A stretch of 60,125 nucleotides of DNA from a virus. Lineage: Duplodnaviria > Caudoviricetes. The DNA lies in IMG/VR virus record IMGVR_UViG_3300043485_000026, positions 1 through 60,125 of that record. One strand, 5' to 3'. Shown in pieces: positions 1 to 60,125 of this stretch. The position numbers and the translations under genes were made by a program. The notes beneath the pieces were generated by a model. It was not told the origin of the DNA. It did not search any database and worked only from the letters and a program-made list of their open reading frames with translations. The first letter of the stretch is position 1, and the number at the start of each line of letters is the position of its first letter.

Positions 1-126
1 TGAGGTCATCGGCGCTTTCAAGGCCCAGCAGGATCGCAACGTCGTTCAGGGACGCGAACTCGCCCGCGACCGGATCATCGGGGACAACGACTGGGCTCAT
101 GTGACCTCCCTTCCATCACGGCGGGG
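1..126. repeat. Terminal direct repeat (copy 1), circularisation overlap
   Basis: 1-126 is identical to 59979-60104. Joining the ends places the major capsid gene directly upstream of the head-tail adaptor, the expected order. Confidence 0.95.
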
Positions 127-148
127 ACCGGCTTGTGCCGGTCCCCGC
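121..148 (-). terminator. GC-rich hairpin after the major capsid gene (terminator/attenuator)
   Basis: 12-bp perfect stem gcggggaccggc/gccggtccccgc with a 4-nt loop, 10 nt after the capsid stop. No U-tract. Confidence 0.65.
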
Positions 149-158
149 TAGATAGTGC

Positions 159-1085
159 TTACGATCCCTGACCGAAGTTGAGCTGAACAACGCCCTTCGG
201 GTACGCGACAGCGAGGCCGTACATGATGTCCACAACGACCTGATCCTGCTTCGCTGACTCGTCATAGGAGTAGATGACTCGCAGCGACAGGCCCTTGTAG
301 TTCACGACAGCTGAGTTCTCGGCTGGGACACCGCGCGGCTTGTTCAACGGCCGAATCGCCGCGATCACAGCGCTCTTATGGAACGCGACGCCATCCGCCT
401 GCCCAGCGTCGCCGGCACCCAGACCGAACACCTGCGTCTCATACGTCTCAAACCCGAGCGCGCGACCCACGATCGCGTTACGCAACGCATCCGTGGAACC
501 CGACTTGTCCGCGGCGAGAAAGATCTCATCCCCAAGCGCAACCGTCGTGGCTTCCGGCGACAGCACCGCAAACCGTTCCGTCAACGGTAGCTTGTTGCGC
601 GTCAGCACCTCACGCGCCTTGCGGAACACGTAGTTGGCGGTATCCACGGTCGCCGGGTCATCAGACATGTTGACGGTTCCGCCGCCACCACCAGCCTCAG
701 CCGTATCGACAAGCTTCTCCGCAAGCGCACCGTCCATTGCCTGCGCGAGTGCTTCCATCGCGGGCGTCAGAAGCTGCGTCTGAAAGTCGCTGATCTTGAG
801 CGTCATCTGCTCATCCGTGACATGGAACGGGACATGCTTGATCGTGTCGAGTGTCACATCGACCGAATCCTCCGTAGCGTCCTGCCACGTCGTGGTCCGG
901 GCCGTCGTGTCGAACGTCGCAGCCGTGAACGTCGCCGGCTTGCGAATCGTGATCGTGTCGCCGACCTTGCCGTTGAACTCGGCGTTGAAGTCCTGCGACA
1001 CAAGGGCCGCTAGGAGGGTGTTGTTATAGAGCGTCGCAATCCCGCGAGACGCGACGACGTGAGGCGTGATGAACGTGTTTGCCAT
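159..1085 (-). CDS. Major capsid protein (HK97 fold, P22-coat-like family)
   Basis: 308 aa; motifs GKVGDTITIRKP, G..GFETYE, AFHKSA, D.MYG; strong SD AAGGAGG; follows the scaffold; ends ...GQGS. Confidence 0.92.
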   Translation of the reverse strand: MANTFITPHVVASRGIATLYNNTLLAALVSQDFNAEFNGKVGDTITIRKPATFTAATFDTTARTTTWQDATEDSVDVTLDTIKHVPFHVTDEQMTLKISDFQTQLLTPAMEALAQAMDGALAEKLVDTAEAGGGGGTVNMSDDPATVDTANYVFRKAREVLTRNKLPLTERFAVLSPEATTVALGDEIFLAADKSGSTDALRNAIVGRALGFETYETQVFGLGAGDAGQADGVAFHKSAVIAAIRPLNKPRGVPAENSAVVNYKGLSLRVIYSYDESAKQDQVVVDIMYGLAVAYPKGVVQLNFGQGS

Positions 1086-51793: not shown

Positions 51794-52189
51794 TCACCTC
51801 CTCAACCGATCCATGAACGACTTGATCTCCGGTGCTGACGACATACGTTTACGCGCCTCACCCTCAGCCGATCCCGGCCTATCGGGATGCTCGATACGCG
51901 GCAGGGGCGGAACGTTCTCAACCTTGCGACCCTGACCAATCGCCAGGACGCGCAGCCATGAGTCGCCACGTTCAATCGCGATAGCTGCCAGCTCATCGCT
52001 CTGAGACCATTGCTTGCCGTTGCGTTGCCAAGCGGAATCTGGCGGCAGGCTGCGTGTCAATGCCCACAAGCGTCTGGGCGTTGCGGCTTGAACCTCAACG
52101 CGCAAGTCCATGCCGTAGTAGCGTTGAAAGTCAGCCTCAAGGAAATCCCAGCTTGTGGCTAGGGCGTTCCCGAGGCGGGTGATTCCCCC
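51794..52189 (-). CDS. Tail assembly chaperone, -1 frameshift extension (gpGT-like)
   Basis: The -1 frame reads GITRLG...EADFQRYYGMDL...LP.DS after the slippery site. Confidence 0.8.
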   Translation of the reverse strand, partial: GGITRLGNALATSWDFLEADFQRYYGMDLRVEVQAATPRRLWALTRSLPPDSAWQRNGKQWSQSDELAAIAIERGDSWLRVLAIGQGRKVENVPPLPRIEHPDRPGSAEGEARKRMSSAPEIKSFMDRLRR

Positions 52190-52566
52190 GCTTCCACGTT
52201 GGTTCCGTTCAGGATCATCCCAACGAGATCGCCGAGTACTTCGGCGCCCCCATCCTTGGACATTTCCCCGATCATGCTATTGCGAACTCGGCGCCACTGT
52301 TCATCGCCGATGACGGATTTGACGAGCATCGCGGCCATGCCAATGGCGTTCGGGCTCCCGGAGATCTGCATTTCCTGCATCTCCGCGAAATCCATCATGA
52401 ACGTCTGCGGAAGCTGCGCCGGAATCGACAACTCCACGCCACGGAATGTCTCCGTAGTTGATCCGCCGCTACCGCCACTGAGTTCCGCGACCGCAACGGC
52501 AGCCGCACGCTTAGGCGTCCTGCCGTTCGCAGGCTTGGGCTTAGGCTTCGCTGTGGTGGTTGCCAT
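52159..52566 (-). CDS. Tail assembly chaperone (gpG-like)
   Basis: Between the major tail and tape measure genes; IG.EQW motif. Confidence 0.85.
   Translation of the reverse strand: MATTTAKPKPKPANGRTPKRAAAVAVAELSGGSGGSTTETFRGVELSIPAQLPQTFMMDFAEMQEMQISGSPNAIGMAAMLVKSVIGDEQWRRVRNSMIGEMSKDGGAEVLGDLVGMILNGTNVEAGESPASGTP
52183..52189 (-). promoter_or_regulatory. Programmed -1 frameshift site GGGGGAA
   Basis: GCG GGG GAA near the end of the chaperone ORF; the -1 frame stays open to 51794. Confidence 0.8.
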
Positions 52567-53141
52567 CAGGAGCCAACCGCCATTGAGGCGGCGTCATTGG
52601 ACAGGAAGATCATTGATGTGGACCCATCCGCCGGCTGCAATGCCTTGACCGTGATGGGCAGCAACGACGCATCGGTGCGCACGAACTGTGTTTCGACGGC
52701 ATCCGTCACGTTGCAGCGCGGCAGAATGATCCGTTCGGTAATCGCGCCATCCGTTGCCTCAAGGATCACAGCGCGCTCATCGAGGGCGCCACTGGTCGGC
52801 AGCTCATACTTGTAGTTAGAGCCGGACACCAGTTCGACACTGCCGCCGCCGAACGCGAACGGAATCGTTGACTCATTCCATTGCAGCAGCGCGAACGTTG
52901 CCGTGACCTCCTGCGAGGTCAGCTCACGACGCACGGCCTGGCGGGACTGCCACGCCATGATGTCCTGAATCTCAGGGCTGACGCTGAGGGACGCGCCGTC
53001 CTCACTGATGTACCCGAGTCCGATGAAGGCTGCGTTGAGCGTTGCGCTTGGTGTAGTCGGCAGCGCGGTGCCGACTGGTGCGACGTATACCTCGCCGCCA
53101 CTAAAGACGCGGATCTCTCCGGTATCGTTCCATCCGGGCAT
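52566..53141 (-). CDS. Major tail tube protein
   Basis: G.VYVAP.GT.LP, LGYISEDG, AWQ..VR motifs; ends ...AVGS. Confidence 0.92.
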   Translation of the reverse strand: MPGWNDTGEIRVFSGGEVYVAPVGTALPTTPSATLNAAFIGLGYISEDGASLSVSPEIQDIMAWQSRQAVRRELTSQEVTATFALLQWNESTIPFAFGGGSVELVSGSNYKYELPTSGALDERAVILEATDGAITERIILPRCNVTDAVETQFVRTDASLLPITVKALQPADGSTSMIFLSNDAASMAVGS

Positions 53142-53221: not shown

Positions 53222-53536
53222 CTAGCCGCCCGGTGTTTCAGAGCGACCGTCAACGAACCGCAACCCGGCAGCGCGAACCGCGCGACGGACCGGGGCTTTT
53301 GGACCCTGCCCGATCGCCCCGAATTCGATTATGTGCCAAGCAATGTCTCGGACTTCAACACGAGTCCCAATGGCCTTGACCTTGCGGGAGTAGTTGCCCG
53401 TGTCACGGAACGTCTGAGCAATGAGTTGCACCAAGCGAGCGAGCAGGACTGCTTTGGCTCGCATCTCAGCCTGGTACACCGGCTGGCCTCGCAACTCCCG
53501 CTCAAACGTACGGCGCGGCTTGAACTGACGACTCAC
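53222..53536 (-). CDS. Tail completion protein (HK97 gp10-like)
   Basis: DTG.Y, IEFG...P.AP.RRA. Confidence 0.75.
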   Translation of the reverse strand: MSRQFKPRRTFERELRGQPVYQAEMRAKAVLLARLVQLIAQTFRDTGNYSRKVKAIGTRVEVRDIAWHIIEFGAIGQGPKAPVRRAVRAAGLRFVDGRSETPGG

Positions 53537-53967
53537 GCTCGATGCACCATGATCTCAGCCGTCAAGATATACCGCTCGCGTGCAGGCTCCATATCCGTGT
53601 CCGGGATTCGCGCATGCCCGTTGAACCGCACACGTGTGACAACCACGCCATCAGATGTGCTGCCCTGCATCGCTCTCAGGACGGCACGGGAAGTCGCGGC
53701 AACCGCGTACGCCTCCGCTTGTTGAGTCTGGTTCTTCGCGGCTGTTGAGCCCGCGTAACAGTCCAGTTGAAGCATCCCATCCAGTAGGTACTCAACGCCG
53801 GATACCGGGTCGTCGGGGAGATCGAGGAGCGTTACGCGAACCCACGGGCCAGTTGTGCTCTCAGGGATGCGCGGCCCGACACGAACCCCCAACCCCATGA
53901 GGTCGGGATGCTCGCGAAGCCACTTGGCGACCAGTGCCTCAAGGTTGGGTGTGAGGACAAGCGTCAT
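53533..53967 (-). CDS. Tail terminator protein
   Basis: E..V..WL, P.VRV, Q.DCYA, PD....RY motifs and position. Confidence 0.75.
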   Translation of the reverse strand: MTLVLTPNLEALVAKWLREHPDLMGLGVRVGPRIPESTTGPWVRVTLLDLPDDPVSGVEYLLDGMLQLDCYAGSTAAKNQTQQAEAYAVAATSRAVLRAMQGSTSDGVVVTRVRFNGHARIPDTDMEPARERYILTAEIMVHRA

Positions 53968-54311
53968 GAGCCCTCCTGATCCGACGTGGCCACTCGACGT
54001 AGCGTCGCCTCGATATGGCTAGCGACCATTGTGCGAGGGTTACGAGCCTCCCAAGGCGCTCCGGTGACCTCGAAGATCAGGCCATCAACGAGCACCCCGT
54101 CGCCCGTGTCGATCTCGGTGCCAGCGGGAAGGATCAGGAGCCAATCAGTTTGCGATAGCTGGCCCTGAGCTTCGTCGCGCTTCCGCTGCTGCAACTCTCC
54201 GACGGTTTCGATCAGAACCTCATCAGCTATCTCTCCGCCGAATTCGTCGATGGTTCCACCGGGAGCCCGTCTAACAATCGTCACAGTCCGATTGAGCAAC
54301 GCTGGTAGCAC
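53964..54311 (-). CDS. Head closure / head-tail joining protein
   Basis: V.I.R...D.FG, D.V.VDG..FEV.G.P, H.E..LR; ends ...QEGS. Confidence 0.8.
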
Positions 54312-54897
54312 GTTGTGCCCCCTTGCCGACGAGTTGGCTTATACGAGATTGGGATACTCCGAATACGGCCGCTAGCTGATACTGGGTCGTATTCCCAGTC
54401 TGGTAACGATGGCGTATGACCTCGACTTGCCCGTCTGAAAGTTTGCGGCGCCCGCCTACGCGCCCGCCTGATGCTCGCCCCTTAGCGTCTCTATCCGCCA
54501 TGTTGTCGGCATGCGTCCCAAGAAACAAATGATCCGGGTTGACGCACGGCGGATTGTCACAGCGATGACAAACCGACAAGCCTTCGGGAATCGGTCCCAT
54601 CCAAAGTTGATAGGCGAAGCGGTGTGCCGCAACCATTTTGTCGCCGCAACGCAACTGCCCGTATCGGGCTCTTGTCGTGCTCGTCCATATCCAGCACCCA
54701 GAATCATCGATGATGTACTTCTCGTGGAACCGCTCTACGGGTGATCCAACATGCAATTTGCGCGCGTGGGCCGAATTCACAAATCGCAGCGGCCGTCCCC
54801 TGACGTGACCAAAGCGCTTATCTGTCGTCTTCGCGAGCGGCGTAAGATCCCCGCAACCACATTCGCAATGCCCTACCTGCGGTGTACTCTCCAACAC
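54271..54897 (-). CDS. HNH homing endonuclease with C-terminal HTH
   Basis: CW.W...YG, AHR..Y...GPIP.G..V.H.CDNP.CVNP.HL..GT..DN..D..KGR. Confidence 0.92.
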
Positions 54898-54956
54898 GTC
54901 AGTCCTCCCGACCAGGATTGGCCAGACCCCAGGGCGTTTGCCGCGCCGCTGGGGTC
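54898..54956 (+). promoter_or_regulatory. HNH-leader two-hairpin element, copy 2
   Basis: Same 59-nt geometry as 7450-7508, with compensatory base changes. Confidence 0.7.
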
Positions 54957-55641
54957 AACTCATTATGCCATATGGCAGTGTTTTCGCCTCCTCAACCAGT
55001 GCTCTTATCGCGGGCGAGTTTCCTATTGCCTGGGCATACCGTTTGCGTAGATCCCATGACTCCCGTGAACCGCGGCTACGAGTCAAACGATCCTGCGGTG
55101 GATGCCACAGATGCAGCAGCGACGTTTTCACGCGATGCGGCGGTCCGTACAGAGTCCGTAGAGCAAAGCCCTGTGCTTCGTCCTCCGAGCCCCATCCCAG
55201 AAACCGGGGATCGATGGGGCACGCCTCGTAAACATCGCGACGAATCACAATCGCTCCGCCGCCCTCTACGCCCAAATACGCTCGCTCAGCAAGATGCGCC
55301 GGATCGTAGGAGCCCGTGGCCAGGAGCGCGTCTGTAGCGCCCCCAGACAAGCGTATGACGCCCCTGTGAGGGGTCGCCCAAGCATTCCCCGCTCGAATGT
55401 GCTCAACGGCTTCCGGTAGCCCGTCTGTCCACACGTCCGCGTCAATCAGGATCAGAGTCTCGGCTTGCGTCTGTGCGAGCGCATCATAGATCGCCGCCGC
55501 TTTGCACCATGGCCCAGTGTCGTGCAGGCCGATGATGACAGGCCAACCGTTTTGCGCATGCTTCGCGAGGACCCATGCGAGGGCACGCTTGCGGTGCGGG
55601 CAGTCAGTGGTTCGCCACGGGATTAGGACGGCAATGGACAA
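54955..55641 (-). CDS. Glycosyltransferase (GT-A fold, GT2/GT7-like)
   Basis: VLIPWR, DADV, D.RF.GWG.ED, HLWHP. Confidence 0.85.
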   Translation of the reverse strand: MSIAVLIPWRTTDCPHRKRALAWVLAKHAQNGWPVIIGLHDTGPWCKAAAIYDALAQTQAETLILIDADVWTDGLPEAVEHIRAGNAWATPHRGVIRLSGGATDALLATGSYDPAHLAERAYLGVEGGGAIVIRRDVYEACPIDPRFLGWGSEDEAQGFALRTLYGPPHRVKTSLLHLWHPPQDRLTRSRGSRESWDLRKRYAQAIGNSPAIRALVEEAKTLPYGIMS

Positions 55642-56426
55642 GCTACGGGTGCCGGATCGTAGATAAGCGAAGGATCGCTGGCGGGATCGGACGAATGGAA
55701 CCAGGTGTGGAACACGTCCCCTATTGCCGCAGGGCCGCCAGAATCCAGTAGATGACCGTAGTCGCGCCAATGCTTGCCTTGATCTTCGGGGAGGTCTGTA
55801 GCCGCGTATGCCGCAGAGCCATTGCGGACCTTGCGAACCATCTGCTCTGGAGATCTGAGCGCGAAATGCCTGAGTGTCAGCAAGTTCGAGACCTTCCCTG
55901 GCAGATCCCTACCAGGGAAGGAAGCACCATGATTACCCTGCTCGATTACCAAGCCCGGTAGGGCTCGTGCAGCCACCTTAGGCAGCGGGCCTGGATAGGA
56001 ACGGTGCCAGCCGATACGTCGTAGTGGGTTCGGGTCTTCAGGATCCATACTTGTCGGAACGTGATCCCATAGATCGGCTTCGGCGATCAAAACAGTAGGC
56101 GGGAGTGCATCAAGCGCATCCCTGATGCGCTGACCGCTGCGCGTAAACCATGCCTCATCTGCATCCCAGGGCACCACCCATGTCGCCCCCATATTCATTG
56201 CGTGCTCGGCTAGCGCGGACATTTTACGACTCTGCCAATAGCCGACCTCTAAGTCATCCACAATCGTAAGGCGGTCATCGAACCAGCCGCGAAGCAAGTT
56301 GCCAGTTCCATCTCGACTCTGGTTATCCGCGATCAGCACAGCATCAACCTGAGTCAGCATATGCGCAAGCGTAAATCCCAAGATGTCCAGTTCGTCACGC
56401 ACCATCGCAATCCCGAAGACGGTCAT
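55623..56426 (-). CDS. Glycosyltransferase family 2-like
   Basis: MVRDE.DI, DN.S.DGT, W...DADE, K, GNH, HF..RS.EQ..RK. Confidence 0.88.
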   Translation of the reverse strand: MTVFGIAMVRDELDILGFTLAHMLTQVDAVLIADNQSRDGTGNLLRGWFDDRLTIVDDLEVGYWQSRKMSALAEHAMNMGATWVVPWDADEAWFTRSGQRIRDALDALPPTVLIAEADLWDHVPTSMDPEDPNPLRRIGWHRSYPGPLPKVAARALPGLVIEQGNHGASFPGRDLPGKVSNLLTLRHFALRSPEQMVRKVRNGSAAYAATDLPEDQGKHWRDYGHLLDSGGPAAIGDVFHTWFHSSDPASDPSLIYDPAPVACPLPS

Positions 56427-57019
56427 CGGCAGATCCCCAACCAATGCGTAATGCGCTCAGCATGCGTCTCGCCAAGCATCACGTACTCCCGCTCGATGAT
56501 CCGCGTGAACCCAACTGAGCGAAGATCGCGCATAATCGTGGCCTCCGACGCTTCCATGCCGGGGATCTTTCGCACGTCGAAATCCACGACGATATCTGAG
56601 CACTTCCAGATCTCACCAGTGTCCATCAGGTTGCGCAAGATCTCGACCTCCGCACCCTCGCAGTTCAACTTGACGATCACGGTCATGTCCTGCGTCAGAT
56701 AGCTCGCGAAGAACTCTGAAGCCTCAAGGAAATCGCAGTGCGTGACGACGCTTGAATCCACGTCGTTCTTAGCTGGATACATCGAGGCTTCCATGTCCAT
56801 ATTCGAGCCATACAGCGGGAGCGTGGCTGTCTCATCGCCTAGCCCGTAATTGCGCAACCGAACGGCCGGGAAGTCCTCGAATCGCTCGCGTAGCGTCTCG
56901 TACTGAGCTGGCATCGGTTCAAATGCGTAGATCACGTCAAACGCATGCTCTGGGCGAACCACGACATCGAGGGTCTGGCCCTCATGCGACCCGATGTCAA
57001 GGAAGACCCTCATAGCCAC
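56423..57019 (-). CDS. FkbM-family methyltransferase
   Basis: FLDIG.H.G, AFEP, KLNCEGAE. Confidence 0.88.
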   Translation of the reverse strand: MAMRVFLDIGSHEGQTLDVVVRPEHAFDVIYAFEPMPAQYETLRERFEDFPAVRLRNYGLGDETATLPLYGSNMDMEASMYPAKNDVDSSVVTHCDFLEASEFFASYLTQDMTVIVKLNCEGAEVEILRNLMDTGEIWKCSDIVVDFDVRKIPGMEASEATIMRDLRSVGFTRIIEREYVMLGETHAERITHWLGICR

Positions 57020-57573
57020 ACAGCCCAGATCGCAGTGTCTGGCGCAACCGACACGCGATCCCCAAACATCTCATCCACAACGGCCTTTACGTCCGGGTAG
57101 CCGGCCTGGGGATGATCAACGTAGTCGTGGCCGCAGATCAGCGTGCGTGTCTTCGGTAGCCAAGCGTCAATATCGGCCTGAATCCCAGCGCGGGAATGAT
57201 CACCGTCGATGTACACCATGTCCACCTTGCCACGCTTCGGAATCCCCTTGGCAACAGCAGGAGAGAAGCCTTTGATTGGTCGAACGTTCTGCAAGCAACC
57301 GGCATTCTCCATGAACGCCGGTTCGCAATGCCCGCCCTCATCATCGAACGGGTCAATGCAATACACCAACCCATTGCAACCCGTAGCAAGCGCATAAGAG
57401 GACCGGCCCCGCAGCGCGCCGACCTCAACGACGTTGCGCATCTTCGCGGCCTGATCGTGCAGCCATTCAAGCTCCGAGACACGGCACCAACCCCAGATAT
57501 GCGAGCCCGGAACCGGACAATCGGGAATAGGGTTCGGACCGTAGGAATCCCAGCGCGCGCGCTCAGTATCCAT
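57010..57573 (-). CDS. Class I SAM methyltransferase (Methyltransf_24-like)
   Basis: VEVG...GRS, IDPF, G.S, D.VYIDGDH, ICGHDY, V..VVDE. Confidence 0.88.
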   Translation of the reverse strand: MDTERARWDSYGPNPIPDCPVPGSHIWGWCRVSELEWLHDQAAKMRNVVEVGALRGRSSYALATGCNGLVYCIDPFDDEGGHCEPAFMENAGCLQNVRPIKGFSPAVAKGIPKRGKVDMVYIDGDHSRAGIQADIDAWLPKTRTLICGHDYVDHPQAGYPDVKAVVDEMFGDRVSVAPDTAIWAVWL

Positions 57574-58159
57574 ACCCAGCCCTCTCGTAGCCGATGTGTT
57601 CAACATCCACACTAGTGCCCCAGTACGCCGCCCTGTAGGCGGGATTCTCAGCGAACAAGTCGATGCCGAAGTTTCCTTCGCTCTCAGCTACCTGGGGCCA
57701 ACCACGCTCAATCACCCAGCGCGGCCACACAGGCACATTCGTTGTGACAAACCGTCGATGCTCTCGCCACCGGTAGTCCCGCCAGCCGACCGTCTCGTAG
57801 CTCTCCGGGTACTGTTCGATGATTCCGCCCGCTTCACGCTCAGCTTCGTTCACGGGGCCGCGCAACAACGCCATCTGCACCAAGTACGGACGGGCATCAA
57901 GAACCGAGACTATCCCGGCTAGGTCAACGGGCCGAAGGTAGATCAGGTCCAGCTCGCAATGCAATACGTGCGTAGCGTCCGTTAGGAGGGCCTGTCGCCA
58001 ACCCTCGCGAATCGCGCCACCAAACCCCAGCTTGTGGTCTCGGTCATCCACCACGATCGTGTGGTCGGTCTCAGGGATCATCTCTCGCAGCGATGCCCAT
58101 GAACGATCGTGGTACTCGTCGCGACCATCCCCAATGGCCACCAGGGCAACGCTAGGCAC
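57563..58159 (-). CDS. Glycosyltransferase-like protein (GT-A fold)
   Basis: GR..Y, VVDD..H.LGFGGA, H.E.D, Q.AL.R, TTN, SEG.F, V.HIG..R.G.GY. Confidence 0.7.
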   Translation of the reverse strand: MPSVALVAIGDGRDEYHDRSWASLREMIPETDHTIVVDDRDHKLGFGGAIREGWRQALLTDATHVLHCELDLIYLRPVDLAGIVSVLDARPYLVQMALLRGPVNEAEREAGGIIEQYPESYETVGWRDYRWREHRRFVTTNVPVWPRWVIERGWPQVAESEGNFGIDLFAENPAYRAAYWGTSVDVEHIGYERAGYGY

Positions 58160-58331
58160 GACTGGCGTCCCTCGTGAGAAGTAGCTGGTACACATCGCCG
58201 TCGATTTCGAGATCAGCGACGTTGACCCAAGCCACGACACGCGGATGATTCGGGTTGTACGTCATTCCCGGCGCCCGAGACCCATCCGGGTACTCCCACA
58301 GCGGACAGGTGCTGATAGCGAGCATCCTCAT
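58152..58331 (-). CDS. 59-aa hypothetical protein within the GT cluster
   Basis: MRMLAISTCPLWEY...; fills the gap and overlaps both neighbours. Confidence 0.5.
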   Translation of the reverse strand: MRMLAISTCPLWEYPDGSRAPGMTYNPNHPRVVAWVNVADLEIDGDVYQLLLTRDASRA

Positions 58332-58945
58332 GCGATCAGTTCGCCTAGGTTTGCGCGCACGATCGCATGATGCGTGGCGTTCTTGTCGGTCATCGCTGGG
58401 TTACGGTTCCTACTGTCCCGTCGCACATAGGCGATGTAGACAGCTTCCGGGATGACTTCAACGCTTGCACCCAGCGCTAGGACACGCATCCAAAGACAGA
58501 AATCCTCGTATACAGGCCAATCGAGCCAGCCGCCGGCCTTCCGCACAAGCTCAGTTCGGACCATTGCGCCAACAATAATCCAGTTCCCAGCGCCACTCGT
58601 GATGCAAGCCGCCTCGCACTCATGGGTGTGGCTGGCGACCCTTGGCACGTACGGAGCGCGACCGCGGCCACTAGGCGTCACGTACTGCACGCTCGGCACT
58701 CGAAGATCAGCCGTGCCAGCACTCAAAGTCTCACAGTATCCGGCTTGCAACTGGTCGTCAGCATCTAGGAACACTACGGCTGAGGTTTCGACTTGCGCCA
58801 AGCCGGCATTCCTCGCCCCGTGCAATGACTGTCCATGCACGTAGATGACCGGGACATCCTGAGCGAACGCGGATGCCGCGGCGCGCTGCCCAAGCTCAAG
58901 CCAATGTCGTTCTCCAAAGGAAGCAATGACGACGGTCACGTCCAT
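58328..58945 (-). CDS. Glycosyltransferase family 2
   Basis: VTVVIA, ARNAGL..V.T..V.FLDADD, GG....ED..LW.R. Confidence 0.9.
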   Translation of the reverse strand: MDVTVVIASFGERHWLELGQRAAASAFAQDVPVIYVHGQSLHGARNAGLAQVETSAVVFLDADDQLQAGYCETLSAGTADLRVPSVQYVTPSGRGRAPYVPRVASHTHECEAACITSGAGNWIIVGAMVRTELVRKAGGWLDWPVYEDFCLWMRVLALGASVEVIPEAVYIAYVRRDSRNRNPAMTDKNATHHAIVRANLGELIA

Positions 58946-59568
58946 AGGTGCTCCCTCCGTCGAAAGACCTTCCCATCCCACCGGGCGTTCGCCCTGCCCT
59001 TACGATACGTGTCATCATCCTGCCCGCCCTGCATTGGGTGCCCGACATGCTCCACGACCGCGGCGGGCGCGTAGGCATAGCAGCCTCGCTTCTTAGCAGT
59101 AGCGATCAGTTCGTCGTCAACTCGCCAGTGCGAATAGCCTCCAAACAACGGGCCGGGATGTCCGTCGATGCAAGGTAGTTCAGCGTACGCGCGAGTCATC
59201 AGGAAGTGTGTTGCGTGTTCGGGTCGCTGTGGTCGTGGAATGCCGTCGTTCACGCCTACAACTTGGGCGGCCGGCATCAGACGAATCGCCTCCTCAAGCC
59301 ACCCGGCCTGAAAGCGAATATCGTCAGCGGCCAGAAACAGCAAGGATTCCGTGGTGGCTTCAACTCCCGCCCGGATCTTCGCGGCGTACGAGCCACTAGG
59401 CGAAATCATCTGCCCGCCCTCGCGAGCAATAGCGTCCTGCTCAGCGATATCACCCGGATCGCAAATCCATAGGACCCGCACCGGAGCGGGAGTGTTCGCA
59501 TGAATCGACTCAAGCAACGGCAACACGTTCTGCGGCCGATCCAACACCGGGACAAGAATCGCCAGCAC
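58936..59568 (-). CDS. Glycosyltransferase family 2-like
   Basis: AILVP...RP, LFLAADD..F..GW, H...DDE, V.H..HP. Confidence 0.82.
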   Translation of the reverse strand: MLAILVPVLDRPQNVLPLLESIHANTPAPVRVLWICDPGDIAEQDAIAREGGQMISPSGSYAAKIRAGVEATTESLLFLAADDIRFQAGWLEEAIRLMPAAQVVGVNDGIPRPQRPEHATHFLMTRAYAELPCIDGHPGPLFGGYSHWRVDDELIATAKKRGCYAYAPAAVVEHVGHPMQGGQDDDTYRKGRANARWDGKVFRRREHLWT

Positions 59569-60078
59569 CTAATCCGTCCAGTCATACACGGGCGGATCAT
59601 TGGGACCAGCCTCAATCAAACCCTGCACCGGGTTGTTCACAGCAAGCGTGTCCGCGATTGACTCAAGGCACGCCGAACCGCTCGTCATGCCAACCAACTG
59701 TCGGCGACACAAACGAATCTCAGCATCCGTCAACACCAGGCCATGCGCACCATCCGTGTAGCTGACGGAATGCTGATACTGCCCCAACTGCTCACTCTCA
59801 GACCGCGAACCAGTCGGGTTGTTCATCACGCGAATGACCGCGCTCAACGTCACAGCCCGCAACACAGCAGGCACCGGATCAAGTGACAGCGCCCATGCTG
59901 CATCGCGACCCATTGCCTCAATGATCAGACCCGACGCCAATGTCAGCAACAACGTTGCTTGCGCGGACTGAATCGCTGTGAGGTCATCGGCGCTTTCAAG
60001 GCCCAGCAGGATCGCAACGTCGTTCAGGGACGCGAACTCGCCCGCGACCGGATCATCGGGGACAACGACTGGGCTCAT
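59569..60078 (-). CDS. Head-tail adaptor (connector) protein
   Basis: FA...DV..L, LL..AS..I, V.R...NP.G..SE..G.Y..SY, L.LT..E...; follows the capsid gene across the origin. Confidence 0.85.
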   Translation of the reverse strand: MSPVVVPDDPVAGEFASLNDVAILLGLESADDLTAIQSAQATLLLTLASGLIIEAMGRDAAWALSLDPVPAVLRAVTLSAVIRVMNNPTGSRSESEQLGQYQHSVSYTDGAHGLVLTDAEIRLCRRQLVGMTSGSACLESIADTLAVNNPVQGLIEAGPNDPPVYDWTD

Positions 60079-60104
60079 GTGACCTCCCTTCCATCACGGC
60101 GGGG
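59979..60104. repeat. Terminal direct repeat (copy 2)
   Basis: Identical to 1-126. Confidence 0.95.
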
Positions 60105-60125
60105 GCCCGCGTGTGGCGGGCCCCC

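Follow-up and report, generated by a model that had tools for sequence, protein, structure and literature searches.

The window analysed here is the whole of IMG/VR virus record IMGVR_UViG_3300043485_000026, a stretch of 60,125 bp from an uncultured phage. On its minus strand, between the genes for a head-tail adaptor and a head-closure protein, lies a cassette for five GT-A-like glycosyltransferases (GTA to GTE) and two S-adenosylmethionine (SAM)-dependent methyltransferases (MT24 and FkbM). Quite probably, in our view, this cassette serves the O-glycosylation of virion proteins in the manner described for mycobacteriophages Che8 and Corndog, a reading supported by the families and folds of the enzymes, by the structure of the operon, by a pattern of terminal serines in the virion proteins and by the co-occurrence of terminal Ser with the same island in relatives. 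An earlier note on this DNA had proposed such a system from the letters of the window.

Genes of the cassette

In order of transcription, the cassette and its borders run as follows, with functions as predicted.

59569..60078, minus strand: head-tail adaptor Ad1 (phrog_137, 2.6e-22), the upstream border; ends ..YDWTD, not Ser
58936..59568, minus strand: GTA, GT-A glycosyltransferase, 210 aa (phrog_14945), the left island edge
58328..58945, minus strand: GTB, GT2-family glycosyltransferase, 205 aa from the ATG at 58945 (Pfam)
58152..58331, minus strand: 59-aa orphan open reading frame (ORF) filling the gap between GTB and GTC, not established as a gene
57563..58159, minus strand: GTC, GT-A-fold enzyme of an unannotated family, 198 aa (AlphaFold2, Foldseek)
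57010..57573, minus strand: MT24, SAM-dependent methyltransferase of the Methyltransf_24 family, O-methyltransferase-like, 187 aa (PF13578)
56423..57013, minus strand: FkbM-family methyltransferase, 196 aa (TIGR01444, phrog_8156)
55623..56426, minus strand: GTD, GT2-family glycosyltransferase, 267 aa (Pfam)
54955..55641, minus strand: GTE, GT-A glycosyltransferase, 228 aa, homolog of Che8 gp109 and Corndog gp37, the right island edge
54271..54897, minus strand: HNH homing-type endonuclease with a helix-turn-helix domain (HNH_3, 5.9e-13; phrog_1872, 6e-35)
53964..54311, minus strand: head-closure protein Hc1 (phrog_501, 2e-10), the downstream border; C-terminus ..ATSDQEGS, a predicted additional target

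The earlier note had described five GT-A-like glycosyltransferases, two methyltransferases and a 59-aa ORF. Matches in Pfam, NCBIfam and PHROG together with a structure model bear out the seven enzymes; the 59-aa ORF remains doubtful as a gene. The coordinates in the note agree with the ORF list, and we revised the starts of GTB, GTC, MT24, FkbM, GTD and GTE. The placement of the cassette between adaptor and head-closure genes stands as well, with the addition of the HNH gene between GTE and Hc1. Starts were picked by alignment to homologs and by purine-rich upstream (ribosome-binding) sequence, which gave likely true starts at 58945 for GTB, 58159 for GTC, 57573 for MT24, 57013 for FkbM, 56426 for GTD and 55641 for GTE. 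With these starts, the stop and start codons of successive genes overlap by 4–19 nt, in line with the tight coupling noted earlier. Promoter- and terminator-like sites between 51500 and 60125 showed no excess over shuffled sequence. Because the genes overlap and such sites are not in excess, the region looks like a single late transcription unit reaching from the adaptor to the tail tube.

Each of the five glycosyltransferases shows the GT-A fold and acidic motif or scores above Pfam cut-offs, and from sequence and models we predict that they are catalytic. GTA has a PHROG glycosyltransferase match (6.2e-8) and no match in Pfam. A profile of its 19-sequence family, compared with the PDB, retrieved the GT-A enzymes 9jma (5.4e-6), chondroitin synthase (1.4e-4) and SpsA (1.7e-3), and a DD motif (D82-D83) is invariant across the family. 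GTB matches Glyco_trans_2_3 (9.6e-8; 32.5 bits against a cut-off of 27) and, also above cut-off, Glycos_transf_2 (1.1e-5); GTD matches Glyco_tranf_2_4 (4.5e-9; 37.1 bits against 27.5). GTE is labelled 'galactosyl transferase' in PHROG (5.6e-8), and its family profile matches beta-1,4-galactosyltransferases and chondroitin synthase; D110 and D112 are invariant in the family, and G194, E196 and D197 (WGxED-like) nearly so.

For GTC, Pfam and PDB sequence searches were empty, and the best hit of its family profile against the PDB had an E-value of 0.28. Since nothing credible emerged from sequence, we modelled its structure with AlphaFold2, obtaining a mean predicted local distance difference test (pLDDT) score of 96.6 and a predicted TM-score (pTM) of 0.92. 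Foldseek matched the model to the GT-A proteins majastridin, WrtF, SpsA, RmlT and STIV A197 (E about 1e-5, query TM-score [TMq] 0.52–0.64), and the family has an E69-x-D71 motif with E69 and D71 invariant. On this model GTC is a GT-A-fold enzyme, with activity predicted. Among the 81 database clusters of its family, the window's own gene call included, none has a functional name and one has a Pfam domain. In one relative (L043 3368-4729; L-numbers are locus labels of relatives within this analysis) a GTC homolog is fused, within a 453-aa protein, to an N-terminal domain matching Che8 gp109, so the GTC and gp109 enzyme types are physically linked.

Both methyltransferases fall in named families. 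MT24 matches PF13578 (2.6e-14; 54.4 bits against a cut-off of 26.3), and its family profile retrieved from the PDB 6g7d (2.1e-10; 'Methyltransferase domain protein'), which we take to be a mycobacterial sugar O-methyltransferase, along with cation-dependent O-methyltransferases. FkbM matches NCBIfam TIGR01444 (2.6e-14; 53.9 bits against 37.7) and lies just under the cut-off of Pfam PF05050 (21.4 bits against 22.7). Single-sequence searches of the PDB with MT24 and with FkbM gave 0 matches each. The profile searches and structure prediction that the earlier note had suggested thus confirm the enzyme families and the GT-A folds. Hydropathy predicts that all seven enzymes are soluble and free of membrane spans, the highest Kyte-Doolittle 19-mer value among them being 1.62, compared with 2.72 in the tape measure protein.

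The two remaining genes of the stretch stand apart. The 59-aa ORF matched no family and, among 5.8 billion proteins, found only itself; at the same position the closest relative carries an 87-aa ORF unrelated to it. As it has neither family nor homolog, we did not count it in the pathway. The HNH gene is a mobile insert outside the pathway. Homing-type nucleases occur in the same island of relatives, Endonuclease VII in L013 and an HNH enzyme in L057.

Homology to the studied mycobacteriophage clusters

A profile of the GTE family aligned to Che8 gp109 and Corndog gp37 with an hhalign probability of 98.9% (E 2.8e-17), and blastp aligned GTE to them at 28% identity over 190 aa (E 1e-7). PF13578, the family of MT24, is also matched by Corndog gp35 (1.8e-9) and by the C-terminal half of Che8 gp108 (3.7e-11), both of which match TylF too. 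Che8 gp108 (L011 2172-3347) is a fusion of an N-terminal GT2 domain and a methyltransferase part; over residues 216-391 it shares 54% identity with the O-methyltransferase gp35 of Corndog (L009 2776-3360). Because the fusion carries this gp35-like domain, methylation capacity is part of both studied clusters. GTB and GTD, compared with gp110 of Che8 and gp38 of Corndog by blastp, had no match below E 0.1.

Nucleotide searches with the island (megablast, blastn) against 50,697 phage records gave no match, nor did tblastn with GTA against the same records. The best cultured homologs of GTE, at 43–44% identity, come from Streptomyces phages of about 186–200 kb.

Terminal serines of the virion proteins

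The structural proteins expected to carry the glycans share the same end. Besides Hc1, they are the following.

159..1085, minus strand: major capsid protein, 308 aa (phrog_283, 4.5e-56); C-terminus ..QLNFGQGS, predicted glycosylation target
52566..53141, minus strand: major tail (tube) protein, 191 aa (identified by tblastn against annotated major tail proteins); C-terminus ..AASMAVGS, predicted target

The capsid assignment is also supported by Pfam P22_CoatProtein (9.7e-36) and by 43% identity to the capsid protein of L002. Among 94 ORFs of the window (greedy calls), three end in Gly-Ser: ..GQGS in the capsid protein, ..QEGS in the head-closure protein and ..AVGS in the tail tube. With about 16 virion genes, by our own count, the probability of finding all of them in this group by chance is 0.004. 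In a model of the tail tube, the last 10 residues form a coil after the final strand, with pLDDT down to 49 at the last residue, which gives weak support to a flexible tail. Among six close relatives, the terminal Ser is the last invariant position of the tail tube.

Che8 and Corndog show the same ends in their annotated records: ..NKTGS and ..YSDGS for the capsid and tail tube of Che8, ..PLVGS and ..IKGDS for those of Corndog. Their capsid and tail-tube families are unrelated and yet have the same terminal Ser; their other connector proteins have none. In Che8-type virion O-glycosylation the glycans reportedly sit at the C-terminus of the subunits.

The island and terminal Ser in relatives

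We first consider seven IMG/VR contigs found with GTA as the query, in all of which the island lies between the adaptor and head-closure genes. GTA is present in 7/7 by construction; GTE is likewise found in 7/7, GTB, GTC and GTD each in 4/7, FkbM in 3/7, MT24 in 1/7 and the HNH gene in none.

A second sample was collected blind to glycosyltransferases, by a tail-tube alignment search, and comprised 39 IMG/VR loci and seven loci from bacterial metagenome-assembled genomes (MAGs): three from Solirubrobacterales and one each from Iamiaceae, Microthrixaceae, Marmoricola and an unclassified 'Actinomycetes bacterium'. From these 46 loci, the window and L006, we set aside 12 and kept 36. Nine of those set aside were near-duplicates (L017, L021, L029, L031, L032, L033, L037, L041 and L042); the others were L035 (27 nt upstream of the tail-tube gene), L022 (tail-tube gene off the contig) and L050 (a 43-residue match). 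The 36 loci formed 30 clusters at 70% tail-tube identity.

A Ser-terminal tail tube was found in 17 of the 18 clusters with a GTA/GTE-type island and in 3 of the 12 without one (Fisher p = 1.3e-4). This co-occurrence, a check that the earlier note had proposed, thus came out positive. The Ser-terminal tail tubes counted end in GS, TS, AS or FS. GTA is present in 16/18 and GTE in 17/18 of the island lineages. Among island carriers, most lineages have a capsid protein ending in GS or SS, most a Ser-terminal head-closure protein and some a Ser-terminal adaptor; in island-free lineages such as L023 and L045 the virion-protein ends differ.

Here 'no island' means no homology to known island genes, and a Pfam check followed. 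It found other glycosyltransferases in three such lineages: L027 (GT2, GT17 and an epimerase), L052, which has a GT4 and an FkbM gene in place of the GTA/GTE-type island, and L054, where a GT2 gene lies next to a capsid gene ending ..TVS. One more GT1/GT4 match among 64 ORFs was not assigned to a locus. When any glycosyltransferase is counted, the ratio of Ser to non-Ser tail tubes is 18/3 with and 2/7 without (Fisher p = 0.0017). The Ser-terminal clusters lacking a GTA/GTE-type island are L040/L042, L048 and L052.

Close contrasts, at 60% tail-tube identity or more, separate the two states. L024 has GTE-like genes and a tail tube ending ..STS, whereas L026, in which none were seen, ends ..SSV; L034 and L046 have the island and end ..NFS, whereas L054 has no such island and ends ..LGA. 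These pairs lessen the worry that the co-occurrence reflects shared ancestry alone.

The edges of the island, GTA and GTE, are kept between relatives and its middle varies. Across lineages the middle includes a short-chain dehydrogenase/reductase (SDR) sugar epimerase/dehydratase, a TOD1-type glycosyltransferase, Glyco_transf_7C, a PIG-L de-N-acetylase, Methyltransf_23 enzymes and another FkbM.

Two side observations concern further proteins of the relatives. Just upstream of the adaptor, the two closest relatives, L002 (7209-9548) and L013 (737-2689), encode a 650–779-aa protein ending ..MELVGS or ..MELVGT; the L002 copy, the sole one scanned, had no PHROG match, and the window has no homolog. 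The gene after the tail tube, in the position of a tail-assembly chaperone, is often Ser-terminal (L012 10576-10932, L013, L014, L034, L046 and L051, with ends such as ..ASDGS, ..ASSDS and ..ASTGS); the copy in the window (52159-52566) ends ..SGTP.

A predicted pathway and its alternatives

The comparison, through GTE homology, the MT24 family, the terminal Ser and its co-occurrence with the island, supports the virion-glycosylation reading of the earlier note. In the pathway that we propose, freshly synthesised structural proteins would be the substrates of the seven soluble enzymes in the cytoplasm of the host. In the major capsid, head-closure and tail-tube proteins, a priming enzyme would move a sugar from a host nucleotide-sugar to the Ser at the very C-terminus (..Gly-Ser-COOH). 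Candidates for this step are GTA and GTE, because they are present in 16/18 and 17/18 of the island lineages, and we make no choice between the two. GTB, GTC and GTD would then extend the chain, the Methyltransf_24 and FkbM enzymes would O-methylate sugar hydroxyls, and the assembled particle would bear short methylated glycans on head, neck and tail.

Several observations weigh against this reading. We infer glycosylation at this locus from genes and comparison, and in the same way which residue accepts the glycan, in what order the enzymes work, which sugars they use and what the phage gains. The adaptor of the window has no terminal Ser, while some relatives' adaptors do. L039/L041 carry GTA- and gp37-like genes and have a tail tube ending ..TSA; conversely, L040/L042 and L048 are Ser-terminal with no glycosyltransferase seen on contigs of only 7.5–15 kb. 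The Fisher test overstates independence because the lineages are related, and clustering at 60% identity mixes the categories. Streptomyces phage Kromp has a GT2 gene together with a capsid ending ..HSAN and a tail tube ending ..ALAA, so a glycosyltransferase elsewhere in the genome does not predict the tag; since that gene lies far from the structural genes, Kromp controls only for the lack of an island in the structural module. At the level of the enzymes, direct profile comparison of MT24 with Corndog gp35 was weak (hhalign probability 54%), and PHROG labels the MT24 family 'DNA methyltransferase'. The GT25-like gp110/gp38 type had hhalign probabilities of 0.2% with GTA and 2.6% with GTC, and six-frame searches of the window with PF01755 and a gp110/gp38 profile gave nothing at E <= 1.

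The untagged adaptor and the L039/L041 tail tube would fit an alternative in which proteins are glycosylated at other residues or in other proteins (internal Ser/Thr, minor tail or receptor-binding proteins) and Gly-Ser serves some other end. We regard this as unlikely: the island co-occurs with the terminal Ser, close contrasts included, and Che8 and Corndog, whose glycans are said to be C-terminal, have the same last residue in capsid and tail-tube proteins of unrelated families. About equally improbable is that the enzymes remodel a glycan of the host cell envelope, for instance to block superinfection or destroy a receptor. GT2-type enzymes and FkbM/O-methyltransferases are common in bacterial surface-polysaccharide loci, and among the solved structures nearest to GTA (9jma, TarP and SpsA) are enzymes of lipid-linked oligosaccharides and teichoic acid. 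Yet membrane spans are missing from all seven enzymes, a scan of the 62 other ORFs turned up no flippase, polymerase or lipid-carrier priming enzyme, and the cassette sits inside the late head-tail operon rather than in a lysogeny or moron position; envelope remodelling would also leave the co-occurrence with terminal Ser unexplained.

The PHROG label on the MT24 family could instead be taken to mean that the cassette glycosylates and methylates bases of the phage DNA and so evades restriction, and the closest cultured homolog of GTE, gp73 of Streptomyces phage Satis (L058; 43% identity), does sit among replication genes. This seems very improbable to us. In the PDB the MT24 profile matched O-methyltransferases, with DNA methyltransferases among 0/17 matches; a separate Dam DNA methyltransferase is encoded elsewhere in the window; no base-hydroxymethylase or hypermodification gene appeared at Pfam E <= 1e-3 among the 62 ORFs; and the cassette lies in the structural operon. 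The phage DNA glucosyltransferases known to us are, moreover, GT-B enzymes and not GT-A.

Contig ends and the rest of the window

The remaining features of the structural region and of the contig ends are as follows.

53533-53967, minus strand: tail terminator (phrog_123)
121..148, minus strand: GC-rich RNA hairpin, located after the stop codon of the capsid gene and before the ribosome-binding site of the adaptor
about 60100-60125, minus strand: second copy of the hairpin at the other contig end, with pairing-preserving changes

Comparison of the ends revealed that bases 1-146 repeat 59980-60125 with five mismatches. IMG/VR classes the record as 'linear' with an estimated completeness of 76%; because of the 146-nt overlap, the record wraps around and the genome is probably complete despite that estimate. 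With the ends joined, the adaptor gene follows immediately after the capsid gene (159-1085) in the direction of transcription. Before the capsid gene in the direction of transcription come the scaffold, protease, portal and large terminase genes, and Hc1 is followed by the tail terminator, a 104-aa gene and the major tail protein. The two hairpin copies have folding energies of -34 and -28.2 kcal/mol (z -5.0 and -3.2). All five mismatches of the overlap fall within the stem or loop; both versions fold, and the stem stays paired. This hairpin after the capsid gene may be an attenuator or an mRNA-stabilising element, with variants in the population.

Pfam searches of 62 further ORFs (at least 80 aa) identified 15 families, among them HNH nucleases, lysozyme, Dam methyltransferase, FtsK, PAPS (3'-phosphoadenosine-5'-phosphosulfate) reductase, Rad52 and collagen repeat. 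Three more of these ORFs match HNH_3, and the region 6178-46999 holds the Dam DNA methyltransferase, DUF1643, FtsK/SpoIIIE, Rad52, PAPS-reductase-domain and collagen-repeat proteins and a phage lysozyme. The same searches found no nucleotide-sugar enzyme in the rest of the window, as the earlier note had claimed, and no further glycosyltransferase; a six-frame PF00535 search of the window matched GTB, GTD and GTE and nothing else. With no nucleotide-sugar enzyme in the window, host nucleotide-sugars would be the donors.

Discussion

Our results suggest that virion glycosylation is a common trait in a clade of uncultured phages whose hosts are soil Actinomycetota far removed from Mycobacterium, a wider host range implied by prophages in MAGs of the classes Thermoleophilia and Acidimicrobiia. 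They yield a sequence rule, a connector-region glycosyltransferase island together with Ser-terminal capsid, neck and tail-tube proteins, which may reach connector proteins and would allow a cheap prediction of glycosylated virions in metagenomes. Small soluble enzymes acting on a short C-terminal tag might also serve as a protein-glycosylation tool, and these loci make the function of such glycans outside animal hosts approachable.

A bolder reading, which as a whole we offer only tentatively and think somewhat doubtful, joins several of these elements. In it, the Gly-Ser at the very C-terminus would act as a portable 'glycosylate me' tag, and a hitherto unrecognised primer of the GTA family, unrelated to gp110, would read it. 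A large clade of Actinomycetota phages and prophages, among them the relatives in Solirubrobacterales, Iamiaceae and Marmoricola MAGs, would tag up to four virion proteins (capsid, adaptor, head-closure and tail tube), and the island would be an O-antigen-like locus for virus particles, its edges fixed and its middle exchanged fast. If so, related phages would differ in surface 'serotypes' under diversifying selection, which in soil could not be antibody pressure; it might come from host defence sensors that recognise capsid or tail proteins, from proteases, or from adsorption to host and soil surfaces.

To our knowledge, and according to passages in citing papers, virion glycosylation of phages has been shown by experiment for a few mycobacteriophages only, and there is reportedly little evidence of it in the wider phage population. 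A literature search, which did not extend to the primary Che8 paper and its supplements, returned no paper on such an island between adaptor and head-closure genes. According to passages in PMC12363180 and PMC11600133, Che8, Corndog and Myrna attach sugars to the proteins of their capsid and tail tube with their own glycosyltransferases, and Che8 gp110 and Corndog gp38 are described as essential in the former (PMC12363180). The three Che8 genes, gp108-gp110 (cluster F1), share with the cassette phage-encoded GT-A enzymes and a Methyltransf_24/TylF-type methyltransferase domain. They differ in lying at the right end of the genome, far from the structural genes, whereas the window has seven enzyme genes between the adaptor and head-closure genes; by blastp, GTA, GTB, GTC, GTD and FkbM have no Che8 counterpart, and the Che8 stopper lacks the terminal Ser of the window's head-closure protein.

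Corndog gp35-gp38 (cluster O) comes closer in layout, its enzymes being inside the structural operon, with gp37 homologous to GTE and gp35 matching PF13578. Its O-methyltransferase and three glycosyltransferases are placed between the genes for portal and protease in PMC4351075. Corndog has four enzymes to the window's seven and lacks FkbM; its GT25-like gp38 has no counterpart in the window, and its head-closure protein has no terminal Ser. Genes 73-80 of prophiGD91-2, a prophage of Mycobacterium abscessus, are annotated as four glycosyltransferases, two class I SAM methyltransferases and an adjacent HNH endonuclease, and include a match to GTE at 30% identity; their site, as in Che8, is upstream of the terminase gene and not in the connector region. 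The literature search gave no experimental characterisation of these genes. The earlier note saw in the window an elaborated version of the Che8 system, which overstates the difference because Corndog, with a four-enzyme set (PMC4351075), and prophiGD91-2, with a six-enzyme set, already carry both enzyme types.

Outside phages, flagellin and pilin glycosylation islands consist of variable glycosyltransferase, methyltransferase and sugar-modifying cassettes beside the gene for a surface-polymer subunit, and their content differs among close relatives. By analogy, the window would likewise hold a variable glycan-enzyme cassette beside surface-subunit genes. There, however, the acceptors are internal, surface-exposed Ser/Thr and the structures are cellular appendages, whereas here the structure is a virus particle and, at the level compared, the enzymes are unrelated.

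Thus the kind of system is already known from Che8 and Corndog, and enzyme sets of similar size are already annotated in prophiGD91-2. What differs here is the connector-region position and an island of fixed edges and variable middle across many lineages; only one glycosyltransferase and one methyltransferase family of the enzyme set occur in the studied clusters too, and no enzyme is of the gp110 type. Further differences are the host range that the prophages imply and a tag predicted to extend to the head-closure protein and, in relatives, to the adaptor.

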